From positions 1-64,000 of the IMG/VR virus record IMGVR_UViG_3300050011_000393: a stretch of DNA of 64,000 nt. One strand, given 5' to 3'. Shown in pieces: positions 3,173 to 11,316 of this stretch (position 1 is the first letter of the stretch; each line of letters begins with the position of its first letter). The stretch comes from a virus. A program made the position numbers and the translations under genes. The notes beneath the pieces are model-generated. The model saw nothing but the letters and a program-made list of their open reading frames with translations, was not told where the DNA came from and ran no database searches.

Positions 3173-3547
3173 ATGCCATGCGCAGGAAATGTGCCAGTCA
3201 TTGTCGCAAGCGGGTCAATCAATCAACCTAGCGGCGGAGATATCAGCACTACTACCTTATTCACACCAGCGGCAGACGGGGTTTTTCGAGTTTCGCTCTA
3301 TTTTGATGGGGTTGTTGCATGGGCAGGCAACGCCACGAGTGTTATTTTCTCTTGGACGGACGATAGCGGAGCGCAACATATCACCATGCCAATGAGTAAT
3401 CTGCCCTACGGTTTTAGTAACAGTCCTCACTCTGCGGCAATTGCAATACCAATTCACGCGGCCGCTGCCGTCATCACTATTGCGACGAGCGGCAATACCG
3501 ATACCAACAACTACACACTATACTACATCGTCGAGCAATTAGCGTAA
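3173..3547 (+). CDS. Small beta-rich structural protein
   Basis: Strong GAGGAGG SD; resembles the C-terminal domain of ORF 40125..42191. Confidence 0.6.
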   Translation: MPCAGNVPVIVASGSINQPSGGDISTTTLFTPAADGVFRVSLYFDGVVAWAGNATSVIFSWTDDSGAQHITMPMSNLPYGFSNSPHSAAIAIPIHAAAAVITIATSGNTDTNNYTLYYIVEQLA

Positions 3548-3558
3548 GGAGAAAAATT

Positions 3559-3738
3559 ATATCAGGATTACTATTCAACCAGGGCGGCTTCCACGCCCAA
3601 GGAACTGAGATCAACGGTAAAGGCGTCAGCGAAGAGCAGGTGACTATTGGAAAAGTGGTGACCGTGAACAGTTTATCGCTTAGCCTTACTGAATTAGCCA
3701 CAGCCGTGACCAATAAACGCACGGCCGGGAAAGCCTAA
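3559..3738 (+). CDS. Possible 59-aa ORF with non-canonical ATA start
   Basis: AAGGAG at 3546-3551, open frame ISGLLFNQGGFHAQG...AGKA*. Confidence 0.35.
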   Translation: MSGLLFNQGGFHAQGTEINGKGVSEEQVTIGKVVTVNSLSLSLTELATAVTNKRTAGKA

Positions 3739-5562: not shown

Positions 5563-8500
5563 GTGGCTGACGAGACGACCCAGACCCCTGCGCCTGCACC
5601 AGTACCCGACTCGATTCCGATTGACTTGGAGCCGTCTGCTGCTCCTGCATCTATTCCTATCGACTTGAACCCAACATACGACCCGACTCAGGACAAGCGC
5701 GCGCCGTTCCTCAAGACGAATCTAAATCCAACGGGCCCAACCATCCAAGAGGCGCATAAACCTCTGACACAACGCGTCAAAGAAGCAGTCACAGAAAACA
5801 TTCCTGAATTTTCGCAGAGGACTGTCAACGACCCGAAGTACGGCACAAAATCTTTCCTGCCTGACTCAGATGTAATGACTCAGCAGGAACGGAAAGACCT
5901 GCCCGTTGTCGCGGGAGCCATGGACGTGGCCAGTGAGCTGGCTTCCCCTGGGACTATTGGCACCATCGCTGCGACGGCGGGCTTAGGGGAGGCTCCTGCG
6001 ATAGTTTCGAAGGTCGCGTCTGCGTTATTCGCTGGCCAAATTGCCAAATCCGTTTACGACCAGTACCCGGCGCTGCAGGCGGCCGTCGACAAGGCCCAGC
6101 ACGCGAAGTCTCAGCAAGAACACGATGATGCTTTTGCGGATGCGCAGAAAATCCTGACGCACATGGGCGTCGACACCGCGTTCGGGTTGCTGGCGGCGAA
6201 GCACGGCGCGGAGGGCGCGAAAGATTTGCTGGATGCAACCACGGGCAGCGGAGTGCCTGATGAAGCGTCTACCCTGAAAGCGAAGTATCAAGAGAACCAA
6301 ATTGCACCCCGCGCGCCAGAACCGGAAGAGAAACCCGCTGCGCCTGAAGACGTTCATCCCGAGATGAATCGGCAGACGGTCAAGGAACTGCAGCATCTGG
6401 GGTATTCAACGCAACACATTACCAATTTCAATATCACTGAAATTCGCGACATTCTCAAAAATCAAACACCTGCATCTGAATATAAATTTTCCACGACCGA
6501 CCGTCGGTGGAATCCTGATCTACCAAATCCGGCAACAGCCAAGCCCGCTCCTGAGCCAGATAAGTTCGCCGACCAAGGCGGCAAGCTAGTTGGGCCTCAA
6601 CCAGAAACTGAAGCAGCCGCCGAAAAGCCTTCTCAGACCGCCGAAAACGCCACGGAAACCGCAGACCCCGTCGAAGACCTTATCATGTCCGACAAGATTC
6701 AAGGTAAGAAAGTGAAGGGTGCGACACCTAAGGTTGAGCCGACCGAATTGGCGCGCAGCGCGGGGCCGACCCCGAGCGGATTGATTGAGCGTACAACAGG
6801 CGACCCGAAGTCTGACGCCGCCATCAAGGCGGGAGGTGCGGTTCCCGCAGGCACAATGCTTGGGCTAGTCCAGTTTCACGACCCGAAAACAGGCAGCACC
6901 TTGGCGCTAAAGCCCGAGGCGGTCACGCCCGAAGCGGTCCAGCAACATCTCGCCGCGTCCCGCAAAGCCTTTGGCCTGACTCCGGAGCCTGATGCGCTGG
7001 CGGGAGTCGGCGGTAAGTTTGTAGGCCAGCAGCCTGCTGCGGCACCAGCACCTTATCATCCTGACTTACAAAAGGTTATTGATGATAACGGCGGTACGCA
7101 CTCAAGCGCAGCCAAAGCGGTTTCGCCAGACGAAGGGTCTTTTATTACGCCTGACGGAAAATTTGTTAGCGTAAAAGGGACCCATGATATTGCTATTGGC
7201 CGCGCGAATCCAAAAGACCGACCAGAAGGCCGCATCGATAATCGCCCTAGTTTTTTAGATGATACTGGCGCGATACGTACCAGAATGCGTGTTACCAAGG
7301 CGGGTAGTTCATTAAGTGTGACTGTCCCTAAAAACGGGATTTCTCCTGAACAATTAGATGCGTTGCGGCGGTCAGTCCAAGCTATGGGGCCGTACGGGAA
7401 TTTGGTAATAGAACGTTCAGATATCAGCCGAAATAACAGGGACACCGCCAGCACAACGAAAGAGCAGGTAAAGCCCTACCAAGTTGAGGACGCCCTCCGC
7501 GAAATCGGCGCGCATCCCGAGCAGCAAGATATTCTATCCAAAGAACTCCATACTCCGCACAAACAAACATATGGGATGGAAGTCACAGACGCTGAAGGCA
7601 AAGTTCAGAATGTGCCAATCGAAGCGCATTCTGCCAAGCAGGCGCTCAACACCATCGTAAAGAAATTCCCAGACGCGCATCGCTGGCGTTTGGCGACCGC
7701 GCCTGAAGAAAAGGCACCCTCAACTGACTACTCTGTACCTGCAGGCAAGATACAGAAAATGAAAGAGTCGGCAGGACGGTCTGAGATTCACACTATCCGT
7801 CACGAATTAGGACATATATTCGCAGGGGCGGCTGTGGGCATGAAAACTAACGGGATGCTTAGTTCTTCGCACCCCGCTATGCCGAGCGATGCGCGCGCTG
7901 CGGTTGCTTGGAGTTCTGACGGTTTGTATGAGAAGGGGCGCATCAAACCCGACAAAAGACTGGCGGTAATTCAGGCGTCTCTGGGCGGCATCGCCGCCGA
8001 CAAAGTGTTCAATGATACCCCGCGTTCCGCGAATCATAATTTCGATATCCGCGCTGGCGGGGATGGAACAAAAGCCTACGAACTGTTGCGCGACGCAGGG
8101 TATAATCATGCGGACGCGATGGAAAAAATGCACGAGCTAATTGATACAGAAGTCGAACGTCTGAGTCATCCAGCAATCATGTCCGTTATACATGAGAACG
8201 CAGGTGTGCGCGAGCCAGGTTTGTCGCGGCAGTATCACTACAGTCCCGAGCGGCTAAATTCAATCGTGGCGGAAGCCAATAGGAGAATGACCGATGAAAA
8301 ATATACCGAAAAGCGTGACAACGGAGCAGCTAATGGGGCAGTTAACCAAGGACGTGAAGGCGATGTCGCCCGAACAGAAAGCGGAGTTTCGCCTGCAGTT
8401 GGAAGCGAGCCTAAAAAAGAAGGGGTAATCAATGACAACGGAGCAACTGGGTCAGGCGGTTCTGAAATCAGTCCAGCAGATGTCGCCAACGGAAAAAGCG

Positions 8501-11316
8501 GAAGTCCTCAAGGAACTGGAGAAGGCGTTCCAGAAAAAGAAGACCTAGGCCTCGCCAAAGGAGAAGAGGACGGCATAATCTCCGAAGAGAAGATCAAAAA
8601 GGCCAAGGATTCCGAAGAGCCGCCTGAAATTGAGCCGAACAAAAAACTTCAAGCATCTGCGCAGCGATACGCCAAAGCACAAGGCATGGCTCCCATTAAT
8701 CACGAGCCTGTTGAAGCGGACCCTGAGCACGCGCGAGAAATCGCCAAAATTTACGAAGAATCAAAACATGAACCAAATAACCCGCGCGTGAAGGCGGCGT
8801 ACGATGCGTTGAAAGCAGAGACGCTGGCTCAATTCCACCATCTCCGTGACGACCTCGGTTTGAAGTTCAAGCCGCAAGAGGAGGACCCTTACAACTCCGC
8901 AGAACAAATGATGGATGACATCCGCAAGAACAATACTTTGAAAGTTTTCACTGGCTCGAGCACGGGCGAGGATCATCCTCTGTCCGCTATCGCCCCAGGA
9001 ACTGGCGGCCAGTCATACAACACTGTCTTCCGTTGGGTTCATGACGCCATGGGCCATGCTGCTGGCGGAAACGACTTCAGTGAAAACGGCGAGAAGTCTG
9101 CGACCGAAGCGCACGCACAAATGTATAGTGACACCGCGCGCCCCGCGATGCGCAACGAGACCGAAGGCCAGACATCGTGGTTCTTCCACAACCCTGAAGT
9201 TGAATCTGGCGCGAAACAGCCCGGCGACTTTGCGGAACAAAAAGCCGCACTCATTCAAGATGTCTCTCACGACTGGCATGAAACAATTGGTAAGGCTGCA
9301 GCCGAAGACGAAGCGGGCGGCATTAATCCTCGGACAGGAAAATCCGACACGATGGGCATCGGAACCGAGATTTTGCCTGAGTTCCGGCAGCCACTTGGTC
9401 ATGCGCCGACGCCTGCGGATTTCCAGAAGTTTTATGACAGGCATAAAGATTTATTTGATCAGCACCCAGAATTGCGCGTTGGTTTTGATAACATGTCGGC
9501 CGTAGAAGGCGGGCACGAGATCAATATTGGAGCGGTAGGTCCGAACGCCGCGAAGGTCGCCGCGAAGTTAGATCAAAAATCCGCGTTCGATATCAAGAAG
9601 GGTGAAGTCATTCCGACGGGCGGCAGCGGTTTGAAAACTGACTTCAAAGATTATCCTTTGGAAGACCGCATCAAGGATTTGAAGAGCACTCCTACACGCG
9701 CGGATAAACTCGCAGTCCGAGCGCAGCGCACAATCGCGAAGTGGAGACAAAGCGCCGCGTTTGACCCATCGGATGGAGGCACCCCGCAGGCCCCTGCAGC
9801 GCCGCCAGCACCTAAGGGATCGGAGAATATTCCGACAGTCAGCACTCGTACGCCCAGCATCACCGCGAACAAACAAAGCATCGAGAACCACTCGGATAAC
9901 TCACTGACTTCGGATATGCAAGCGGCCGCTGCGGCCCCGGGCTTCCTGAAGAAATTGGCCGACCGTGTCAGCGACATTCCTGGCTTCATTGACCCAGGCG
10001 GAGATGATCACGAAGCGCGCACCAACGCATACATCCGCCATGTCGCGGACAATACGAAATTCGTTCAGAGCAAGGTCACGCCGGAAGAGCATGCGACTGA
10101 TAGTCAGTGGTATCCAGTCGGCGCGCACGAGCGCGGCATTGACGTCGCGAAGAAACACGGGCTAGATGTTCATCAAGCATATGCCATCACGGCGGCACTT
10201 TCACCTTTGACCGACTGGGACCAGAACACCGCCCAGGCGGAGCGCGCGGCGGAAATCTGGAAGAATCAACAAGACACCAAGTTCGATACGAAAATGCGGA
10301 AGGCGGCCGACGAGATTTTGACCGTCCCTGAGATGGAACATTTCCGAAAAATATTCAAGAGTCTCGAAGGAAAAAAACTGGGAGAACTGAAGACGGAAGG
10401 CGAGCAGGCATGGTGGTTACGCCTGTACGAAGAGGGCCACTACGACCGCTCGTTTCAAACATGGAATCCGGATGGCACCTCTGCAGGGCTGGCCATGAAC
10501 TCTGACGGGGTTACTCCGAAGGCAATGAGCTGGAGTTTCCAAAGTCTGATTGAGAACGCTATCAGTATTATGAAGGATGGGTCTCCCGAGAATATCAGCA
10601 AGTCTCTTGGAGAAGGGCACAAAGTTCGAAATTTCTATAACAACCAGTTGTCTCCTGATGACCCGCGTTTTTTAACAGTTGACACACACCAGGTCAATAT
10701 AGGACAATTGAGGCCGATGTCCGGTTCGTATCCCGATGTGGCTGATAACTTTGGTACGCCGACCAACGTGCCGCATGGCTTGAGCGGCACTTATGTGCTG
10801 CACGATGCAGGGACGCGCCTGGCCGCCAAGGAGCTCGGGATCGACATTCCTAGCCGCTTGCAGTCATCCGGCTGGGTGAAGATTCGCAAAGTATTCCCGA
10901 ACAAGTTTAAGACGGAAGAAAATCTCGCGGTCATAGATGCGATATGGAAGGAGCACACAGATGGAAAAATCACAGCCGACGACGCCAGAAACAGAATCTG
11001 GGACTTCGCCGAAGGATGGAACCGAGATGCTGCTCGAAAAGTTCGGAATCCCAGTAACTCGGGAGAATTATCTGAACCTGGCGTTCGCGGGGAAGCCTCC
11101 GCAGCCAATGGATGGGGAGATCGAGGCGATGCTGCCGAGGAAGTTTCGGAACCAGGAGTAGATGACACCTCTTTCGACTTCGGGGCGAACGAGAAGCCTG
11201 TAGTGGCGGCCTCGCGCAAGAGTAAAGGGTCCGAGAAATCATATGCCAAGAAGGCAGCCGAAGTGCAGGGCTTGATCGCAGCCCTACATGATCTCAAGAC
11301 CCCAGGTAAAAAATAA
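5563..11316 (+). CDS. Large polyvalent protein (1917 aa) with M41-like metallopeptidase, second HDxxGH zincin-like domain and C-terminal putative DNA-acting domain
   Basis: TIRHELGH...LGGIAAD...GGDG; FRWVHDAMGH...ETEGQTSW; AITAALSP...KVRNFYNN...LTVDTH; domains joined by disordered linkers. Confidence 0.75.
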   Translation: MADETTQTPAPAPVPDSIPIDLEPSAAPASIPIDLNPTYDPTQDKRAPFLKTNLNPTGPTIQEAHKPLTQRVKEAVTENIPEFSQRTVNDPKYGTKSFLPDSDVMTQQERKDLPVVAGAMDVASELASPGTIGTIAATAGLGEAPAIVSKVASALFAGQIAKSVYDQYPALQAAVDKAQHAKSQQEHDDAFADAQKILTHMGVDTAFGLLAAKHGAEGAKDLLDATTGSGVPDEASTLKAKYQENQIAPRAPEPEEKPAAPEDVHPEMNRQTVKELQHLGYSTQHITNFNITEIRDILKNQTPASEYKFSTTDRRWNPDLPNPATAKPAPEPDKFADQGGKLVGPQPETEAAAEKPSQTAENATETADPVEDLIMSDKIQGKKVKGATPKVEPTELARSAGPTPSGLIERTTGDPKSDAAIKAGGAVPAGTMLGLVQFHDPKTGSTLALKPEAVTPEAVQQHLAASRKAFGLTPEPDALAGVGGKFVGQQPAAAPAPYHPDLQKVIDDNGGTHSSAAKAVSPDEGSFITPDGKFVSVKGTHDIAIGRANPKDRPEGRIDNRPSFLDDTGAIRTRMRVTKAGSSLSVTVPKNGISPEQLDALRRSVQAMGPYGNLVIERSDISRNNRDTASTTKEQVKPYQVEDALREIGAHPEQQDILSKELHTPHKQTYGMEVTDAEGKVQNVPIEAHSAKQALNTIVKKFPDAHRWRLATAPEEKAPSTDYSVPAGKIQKMKESAGRSEIHTIRHELGHIFAGAAVGMKTNGMLSSSHPAMPSDARAAVAWSSDGLYEKGRIKPDKRLAVIQASLGGIAADKVFNDTPRSANHNFDIRAGGDGTKAYELLRDAGYNHADAMEKMHELIDTEVERLSHPAIMSVIHENAGVREPGLSRQYHYSPERLNSIVAEANRRMTDEKYTEKRDNGAANGAVNQGREGDVARTESGVSPAVGSEPKKEGVINDNGATGSGGSEISPADVANGKSGSPQGTGEGVPEKEDLGLAKGEEDGIISEEKIKKAKDSEEPPEIEPNKKLQASAQRYAKAQGMAPINHEPVEADPEHAREIAKIYEESKHEPNNPRVKAAYDALKAETLAQFHHLRDDLGLKFKPQEEDPYNSAEQMMDDIRKNNTLKVFTGSSTGEDHPLSAIAPGTGGQSYNTVFRWVHDAMGHAAGGNDFSENGEKSATEAHAQMYSDTARPAMRNETEGQTSWFFHNPEVESGAKQPGDFAEQKAALIQDVSHDWHETIGKAAAEDEAGGINPRTGKSDTMGIGTEILPEFRQPLGHAPTPADFQKFYDRHKDLFDQHPELRVGFDNMSAVEGGHEINIGAVGPNAAKVAAKLDQKSAFDIKKGEVIPTGGSGLKTDFKDYPLEDRIKDLKSTPTRADKLAVRAQRTIAKWRQSAAFDPSDGGTPQAPAAPPAPKGSENIPTVSTRTPSITANKQSIENHSDNSLTSDMQAAAAAPGFLKKLADRVSDIPGFIDPGGDDHEARTNAYIRHVADNTKFVQSKVTPEEHATDSQWYPVGAHERGIDVAKKHGLDVHQAYAITAALSPLTDWDQNTAQAERAAEIWKNQQDTKFDTKMRKAADEILTVPEMEHFRKIFKSLEGKKLGELKTEGEQAWWLRLYEEGHYDRSFQTWNPDGTSAGLAMNSDGVTPKAMSWSFQSLIENAISIMKDGSPENISKSLGEGHKVRNFYNNQLSPDDPRFLTVDTHQVNIGQLRPMSGSYPDVADNFGTPTNVPHGLSGTYVLHDAGTRLAAKELGIDIPSRLQSSGWVKIRKVFPNKFKTEENLAVIDAIWKEHTDGKITADDARNRIWDFAEGWNRDAARKVRNPSNSGELSEPGVRGEASAANGWGDRGDAAEEVSEPGVDDTSFDFGANEKPVVAASRKSKGSEKSYAKKAAEVQGLIAALHDLKTPGKK
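8294..8428 (+). CDS. Nested +1-frame micro-protein A (44 aa)
   Basis: AGGAG-N8-ATG; MKNIPKSVTTEQLMGQLTKDVKAMSPEQKAEFRLQLEASLKKKG; paralog of 8432..8548. Confidence 0.7.
   Translation: MKNIPKSVTTEQLMGQLTKDVKAMSPEQKAEFRLQLEASLKKKG
8432..8548 (+). CDS. Nested +1-frame micro-protein B (38 aa)
   Basis: AAGGGG-N6-ATG; MTTEQLGQAVLKSVQQMSPTEKAEVLKELEKAFQKKKT. Confidence 0.7.
   Translation: MTTEQLGQAVLKSVQQMSPTEKAEVLKELEKAFQKKKT
10961..11161 (+). CDS. Nested +1-frame small protein C (66 aa)
   Basis: AAGGAG-N7-ATG; globular-looking LLEKFGIPVTRENYLNLAFAGKPPQPMDGEIEAMLP while the main frame is low complexity. Confidence 0.65.
   Translation: MEKSQPTTPETESGTSPKDGTEMLLEKFGIPVTRENYLNLAFAGKPPQPMDGEIEAMLPRKFRNQE

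Follow-up and report, generated by a model that had tools for sequence, protein, structure and literature searches.

The window analysed here covers the opening 64 kb of the IMG/VR virus record IMGVR_UViG_3300050011_000393, which is 96.7 kb long and has an estimated completeness of 97%. It contains a giant open reading frame (ORF) for a phage polyvalent protein of 1917 amino acids (aa), within which a second ORF of 66 codons opens in the +1 frame, directly behind the part encoding a DUF7178 domain and with a Shine-Dalgarno (SD) sequence of its own. This small ORF is almost certainly a real gene, predicted to be translated from the internal SD and ATG. The features of the locus are as follows.

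5563-11316, + strand: main ORF, 1917-aa phage polyvalent protein (ORF list, Pfam and PHROG searches)
9901-10960, + strand: DUF7178 domain, predicted HhH-GPD DNA-glycosylase-like fold, aa 1447-1799 of the main protein (PF23802, AlphaFold2, VIA-align)
10948-10953, + strand: SD sequence AAGGAG, 7 nucleotides (nt) ahead of the nested start codon (sequence; an SD-like motif recurs in related loci)
10961-11161, + strand: nested gene, 66 codons plus TAG, +1 frame of the main ORF (sequence, homologues, profile search)
10961-11014, + strand: leader of the nested protein, aa 1-18, predicted to be disordered (AlphaFold2 predicted local distance difference test score, pLDDT, 55-62; codon-position entropy)
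11015-11158, + strand: folded core of the nested protein, aa 19-66, three short predicted helices (AlphaFold2 pLDDT 87-93; near-invariant columns; entropy)
11162-11316, + strand: main-frame C-terminal tail beyond the nested gene (pattern FDFGANEK, comparison of related loci)

The nested ORF begins with the ATG at 10961-10963 and ends with the TAG at 11159-11161, and its product includes GIPVTRENYLNLAFAGKPP...EIEAMLP. The first-pass annotation, made from the letters of the window, had given the AAGGAG-N7-ATG signal and the 66-aa ORF at exactly these coordinates. Another in-frame ATG, at 10937, lacks an SD and is not the start that is conserved. By itself the nested ORF does not exceed what chance would produce, since four further +1-frame ORFs of 53-154 aa occur in the same giant gene; it is the comparative evidence that sets it apart. 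The main-frame text across the same bases agrees with that quoted in the first-pass annotation, which called it disordered, and is low in complexity. Opposite the core of the small protein it forms a tolerant Gly/Pro/Ser/Arg-rich linker that joins DUF7178 to a conserved C-terminal tail or, in other phages, to further domains, into which the main frame runs on for kilobases. A recurring main-frame G-E-L-x-G is accounted for by the nested frame, because the codons for R-E-N-Y-L spell G-E-L-x-G when read one base earlier.

Five small homologues, in which P-V-T-R-E-N-Y-L is invariant, emerged from a search among 5.8 billion proteins. In a set of 80 related viral loci that encode the C-terminal domain of the giant protein, the small protein was located by tblastn where the DUF7178 domain ends in 77. 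In about ten loci the homologue is a free-standing gene that begins just beyond the stop codon of the large one, in many cases behind a strong SD. A test profile built solely from 10 such non-overlapped homologues recovered the nested ORF from the six frames of the window as the sole significant match (E=2.5e-13; next match E=2.6), and it matched 80 of 81 loci, with an SD-like motif ahead of the aligned ATG in most of them. The window peptide alone reached 66 of the 80 related loci by tblastn at E≤1e-3, as against 0, 0, 1 and 5 loci for the four other +1-frame ORFs of the giant gene, which served as controls. A 154-aa +1-frame ORF at 9041-9505 (+ strand) has one fairly strong tblastn match, in L003 (40% identity, 81 bits), and none in the other loci; this match is probably inherited DNA similarity.

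The distribution of variability over codon positions also indicates which frame is constrained. Nested position 3 coincides with main position 1, and nested position 2 with main position 3. Over the core, the entropies at nested positions 1, 2 and 3 are 0.96, 0.78 and 1.29, which is the usual coding pattern (position 3 > position 1 > position 2) and resembles that of the free-standing copies (0.97, 0.65 and 1.47) and of the DUF7178 domain in its own frame (0.92, 0.75 and 1.55). The 'synonymous' sites of the main frame are thereby the least variable over the core (position-3 entropy 0.78 versus 1.55 in the domain). Over the leader the pattern is reversed (0.54, 1.16 and 0.75, highest at nested position 2, that is, main position 3), which implies that constraint there falls on the main frame, where the domain comes to its end, and that the two frames alternate in being constrained. 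From these sequence patterns, the nested frame is judged to be under purifying selection in the core. The main frame in turn is held open by selection, as its equivalent contains a mean of 3.7 stops in free-standing copies versus 0.02 in nested copies. Some 150 bases are read twice, as the folded core of the small protein in the +1 frame and as a tolerant linker in the main frame. The proposal of the first-pass annotation that the nested ORF is a gene is thus borne out, and the gene shown to be conserved, by the 10-homologue profile and its matches in 80 of 81 loci, by codon-position entropy and by the size of the family described below. Among double-stranded DNA phages, the locus is a clear example of dual coding with strong support.

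An AlphaFold2 model based on an alignment of 63 sequences predicts a disordered leader (about aa 1-19) followed by a three-helix mini-domain with pLDDT 87-93 for aa 20-60, and D19, P31, T33, R34, Y37, P47, E55 and P59 of the core are near-invariant. A profile search among 1.84 billion cluster representatives (clusters at 50% identity) returned 2168 at E≤1e-3 and 636 at E≤1e-10, and the small protein thus belongs to a large family of at least 2168 such clusters that is new to Pfam and PHROGs. The 150 representatives listed are 53-189 aa long, and one search for longer forms gave a single protein of 220 aa. A few members, such as P0008, P0009 and P0010 (135-189 aa), hold tandem double copies of the small domain, and no in-frame fusion to DUF7178 was found among the 150 listed representatives or in the search for longer forms. 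The core, of about 48 residues, is acidic across the 63 sequences (median isoelectric point, pI, 4.4; median net charge -4), and 79% of the 150 listed representatives have a pI below 5.5. Profile searches gave no Pfam family, no PHROG and no PDB sequence match for the small protein. Its fold had no match in Foldseek and a best Z of 2.5 in VIA-align, and the ESM Atlas returned just an unnamed viral cluster (0.77). Searches of GenBank phages with the window peptide and a free-standing copy (tblastn) or with the region (blastn) gave no match.

A second set of 80 viral loci was fetched through the small-protein motif alone, and 78 of these carry enough upstream sequence to be tested for the domain. 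In 77 of the 78, DUF7178 ends 56-207 nt upstream of the small core, and the small gene, mostly in the +1 frame, is fully nested in 50, partly overlapping in 16 and free-standing in 11. In the remaining locus (L094) the small gene at 5968-6135 (+ strand) is convergent with a gene for a 1533-aa DUF7178 protein at 6124-10725 (- strand), overlapping it tail to tail by about 12 nt at its 3' end; no other locus has the small gene on the opposite strand. Within the loci examined no small gene was met away from DUF7178, although the linkage spans domain identities of just 32-40%. The first-pass annotation had named two outcomes that would speak against a link, namely no homologues at all or homologues never adjacent to this domain; homologues proved numerous, and they adjoin DUF7178 in all 78 testable loci. 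When genome assemblies were scanned with the domain alignment, 18 of 27 DUF7178 loci were found to carry the small ORF. Fully nested copies are present in the cultured isolates Jannaschia seohaensis DSM 25227 (L200) and Pseudofulvimonas gallinarii DSM 21944 (L203), where the loci may be prophages. A degenerate nested copy (Y-T-Q-E-N-Y-L, E=5.6e-5) lies at 3429-3671 (+ strand) of L083, from the GenBank phage OP947163.1 (Rhodobacteraceae phage LS06-2018-MD07). It has no annotation and occupies the +1 frame of a gene of roughly 9 kb labelled 'methyltransferase'. Gene callers miss nested members of the family, including this one inside an annotated GenBank phage gene. Judged by this synteny, the small gene and DUF7178 form one two-part cassette that stays together in free-standing, shortly overlapping, nested and inverted arrangements.

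Out-of-frame nested genes have precedents in phages, such as Rz1 inside Rz of lambda, and E inside D and B inside A of phiX174. As in those cases, a small gene, complete with SD and start codon, occupies another frame of a larger gene, selection keeps the two frames open, and their products probably work as a single functional unit. In contrast to those cases, the host gene here is a multi-domain polyvalent gene of about 5.8 kb with the nested gene in an inter-domain or C-terminal linker, and related phages display all stages from free-standing to fully nested. Because all of these stages exist, overprinting did not create the small gene; either the upstream ORF was extended across it, or the small gene was set free from that ORF. 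With every step towards full nesting present in living relatives, the family offers a good system in which to follow the origin and persistence of gene overlap.

The domain to which the small gene is linked was assigned to DUF7178 by a Pfam match (PF23802) at aa 1491-1588 of the 1917-aa protein (57.4 bits versus a curated cut-off of 27), and all 57 aligned relatives of the domain match PF23802 as well. The AlphaFold2 model built from these 57 sequences has a pLDDT of 93.3. In VIA-align its top 25 rows all belong to the HhH-GPD superfamily (Z 9.7 to 3.9), with unrelated rows from Z 3.7 downwards. The best row is Tm1821 Ogg (Z 9.7, root-mean-square deviation 3.8, 184 residues aligned), and the others include Qng1/DUF2419 (8.6 and 8.3), AGOG (7.3), OGG1 (7.1), MagIII (7.1) and Endo III (6.9), besides Mag1, MutY, ROS1, AlkA, MBD4 and TAG. 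For a helical protein such Z values are only moderate in absolute terms, and the fold call is made because the list is so uniform.

In HhH-GPD glycosylases the catalytic Asp follows a helix-hairpin-helix at a distance of about 20 residues, and bifunctional members have a Lys as well. The DUF7178 domain has two invariant motifs that can be compared with this layout. G-x-x-H-K-V-R-N-F-Y-N-N starts at domain residue 237 and contains Lys241 (main residue 1687, nt 10621-10623), while T-x-D-T-H comprises T259 and D261-T262-H263, with Asp261 as main residue 1707 (nt 10681-10683). In the model, the G237/H240-K241 motif sits on a helix-hairpin-helix and D261-T262-H263 at the start of the next helix. 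As modelled, DUF7178 shares the helical two-lobe fold of the HhH-GPD glycosylases (Endo III/Nth, OGG1, AGOG, MagIII, MutY) and of Qng1/DUF2419, a queuosine-nucleotide glycosylase. By eye, its G-x-G-x-K hairpin and V-D-T-H motif resemble the G-V-G-R-K-T-A-N ... A-V-D-T-H of E. coli Endo III at similar spacing (20 versus 18 residues from Lys to Asp), and OGG1 carries a similar G-V-G-T-K-V ... V-D-V-H. Unlike Endo III, the domain is larger (about 350 residues) and lacks the cysteines of the Fe-S cluster. At the level of the modelled fold, these results support the view that DUF7178 would work like an HhH-GPD glycosylase without being filed as a sequence member of that group, and it may possibly be a bifunctional glycosylase/lyase. 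The fold comparison and the Endo III motifs agree with what the first-pass annotation had guessed from a motif pattern, namely that the upstream domain is HhH-glycosylase-like. A literature search found no mention of DUF7178, for which this would be the first structural assignment, as an HhH-GPD glycosylase-like domain with Lys and Asp apparently at the expected places.

The small protein is likely to be a functional partner of the DUF7178 domain, and a dedicated protein partner is thereby predicted for this domain. In the scenario that we find most appealing, the small protein would bind the DUF7178 domain, most likely as a stoichiometric inhibitor, that is, as an 'immunity' partner and possibly a DNA mimic. 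Such an inhibitor would keep a DNA-damaging, glycosylase/lyase-like effector silent in the virion-producing cell, protecting the DNA of both phage and host. An inhibitory role is suggested by the position of the small gene, which is like that of immunity genes behind toxin domains, together with its acidity and the lack of fusions; that the small protein is specifically an inhibitor of DUF7178 is possible, and we put it forward tentatively. The best explanation of the locus as a whole, a dual-coded real gene in a DUF7178 cassette whose product would bind the domain and most likely inhibit it stoichiometrically, may quite possibly be correct but falls short of being probable. If the partner is an inhibitor, glycosylase inhibitors would gain a new class, and a new way would be known in which phage-delivered effectors are kept safe while virions are made.

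Two kinds of known system offer themselves for comparison. Polymorphic toxin systems such as CdiA-CT/CdiI, Rhs and similar ones are built from effector-immunity cassettes. As in these, a small, fast-diverging gene lies right behind a putative nucleic-acid-acting enzyme domain that ends a giant protein, and the two move together. The DUF7178 pair differs from them in that the small gene often lies in an alternative frame rather than downstream, that some DUF7178 clades do without it, and that the large protein is a phage protein rather than a secreted bacterial toxin; the pair is known here from sequence and models. The second comparison is with protein inhibitors of DNA glycosylases, namely Ugi of PBS1/PBS2, p56 of phi29 and SAUGI. 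Like these, the small protein belongs to a family of acidic proteins encoded by phages or other elements, and it is tied to a glycosylase-like fold. However, Ugi, p56 and SAUGI target host family-1 uracil-DNA glycosylases, their genes have no linked glycosylase gene beside them, and no resemblance between the small protein and a known glycosylase inhibitor emerged from the PDB profile search, Foldseek or VIA-align. We know of no protein inhibitor of an HhH-GPD enzyme.

Several results weigh against a glycosylase-like effector held in check by an antidote. The glycosylase assignment is based on fold and on a motif match made by eye. DUF7178 has no detectable profile relationship to the HhH-GPD enzymes, from which it also differs in being embedded in phage polyvalent proteins: PF00730 (HhH-GPD) gave no match in the genome at E≤10 or in the 57 domain relatives at E≤1, hhalign of the domain with E. 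coli Nth (Endo III) returned a probability of 0.2, Foldseek with the domain model gave nothing significant and only weak OGG1 rows, and nothing significant came from the PDB profile search with the domain. The core of the window copy is only mildly acidic (pI 5.3, net charge -1). Moreover, in a toxin-antidote pair an active effector should never occur without its antidote, yet DUF7178 does so in two settings. Roseobacter phage CRP-738 gp40 (L082, MZ892992.1), which sits between portal and coat genes, and 30 related contigs (L165-L194) have H-K-V-R-N-F and V-D-T-H intact, yet stop codons crowd their +1 frame, and the small gene has no homologue nearby. Likewise, 9 of the 27 DUF7178 loci in genome assemblies carry no detectable small ORF. 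These loci imply that the partner is not needed universally. In either setting a non-homologous gene may have replaced the small one. In the CRP-738 clade the main-frame tail is roughly 70 aa long with a hydrophobic Gly/Ala-rich stretch. Its P-S-W-K-N-Y was considered as an in-frame copy of the small domain and rejected, as the profile scores are negative.

The main rival to inhibition is that the small protein acts as a positive partner, for example, as an accessory subunit, a folding chaperone, or an adaptor by which the domain, or even the entire polyvalent protein, would reach its substrate or enter the capsid. Such a role would fit the strict linkage and the independent start signals equally well, and DUF7178 clades that manage with intact motifs and no small gene fit a dispensable helper better than an antidote. 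However, obligate subunits often fuse, and the searches described above revealed no fusion of the two; inhibitors or DNA mimics are the more usual case where an acidic mini-domain of 48 residues accompanies a fold that acts on DNA, and neither Foldseek nor VIA-align matched it to a known chaperone or adaptor. We regard a positive role as rather unlikely on balance, and more improbable still that the small protein acts independently on a host target, for example, as a DNA-mimic anti-defence protein that travels with DUF7178 merely as part of a co-captured cassette. The acidity of the family and the tandem duplications of the small domain could be read in this way, and polyvalent proteins have been described as counter-defence arsenals (PMC5512222). 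Yet the linkage holds in 78 of 78 loci at such low domain identity, whether the small gene is nested, separate or inverted, and functional coupling can hardly be left out of an explanation. In the loci examined the small gene is never met away from DUF7178.

Two further explanations would dispense with a separate small protein or with the gene itself, and both are effectively excluded. A programmed +1 ribosomal frameshift might yield a shorter polyvalent protein ending in the small domain. The relative frame is +1 in most loci, and an internal SD-like sequence can stimulate +1 shifting, as for prfB. This is nonetheless very improbable: the start Met is conserved in at least 90% of the aligned small-protein sequences, usually with an SD-like motif ahead of it, copies that are free-standing, in another frame or inverted encode the same protein with starts of their own, the available window of 25 codons contains no main-frame stop or known shift site, and no long fused products appeared among the 150 listed representatives or in the search for longer forms. 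It is scarcely conceivable, finally, that the ORF is no gene and that its frame is conserved only because selection acts on the main frame or on the nucleic acid itself, DNA or RNA. Alternative-frame ORFs of such a size are common in this giant gene, and overlapping frames inherit some conservation, but the non-overlapped copies keep the motifs, variability tracks the nested codon positions, control ORFs of the same gene are not conserved and the AlphaFold2 fold is confident.

A broader version of the inhibitor reading can be formulated, which we consider rather speculative and on the whole unlikely to hold in full. No protein inhibitor of an HhH-GPD-type glycosylase would have been known before the small protein, and DUF7178 with the small gene would be an effector-antidote cassette inserted into giant, virion-delivered polyvalent proteins, in which the antidote gene survives insertion by using the alternative frame of the linker. 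Taken together with two +1-frame mini-genes described below, polyvalent-protein genes would then routinely hide a second layer of regulatory genes missed by annotation.

The 1917-aa protein itself resembles the phage polyvalent proteins described by Iyer et al., 2017 (PMC5512222) in being giant and multi-domain, with peptidase-like and other enzymatic or unknown domains. It has a stretch like an HExxH peptidase, a phrog_3170 match covers aa 1054-1212, DUF7178 lies near the C-terminus, and its three PHROG matches are all of function-unknown families. A term search of that survey (Iyer et al., 2017) showed no mention of glycosylases, immunity proteins or overlapping genes, and a literature search on nested or immunity genes in polyvalent proteins found no prior description. 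The tail encoded at 11162-11316 carries T-S-F-D-F-G-A-N followed by a Lys-rich stretch; the motif is kept in the close clade (L002, L003, L005, L010 and L011), and the main-frame tail of L073 has a similar one. It may be for the sake of this tail that the main frame has to stay open across the small gene. A gene for the major head protein lies upstream of the giant gene, and genes for endonuclease VII, a 'DNA transfer protein', a UvsX-like recombinase and DNA polymerase lie downstream. The TGA stop of the main ORF overlaps the start codon of the endonuclease VII gene as ATGA at 11316; endonuclease VII was considered as a member of the cassette and rejected, its synteny being limited to the close clade.

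Elsewhere in the giant gene, after the HExxH peptidase-like region, two tandem, paralogous and SD-led mini-ORFs lie in the +1 frame on the + strand, at 8294-8428 (44 aa) and 8432-8548 (38 aa). Their +1 frame is conserved in 11 of the 80 related loci, including the distant L014 and L016, and they are probably further hidden genes.

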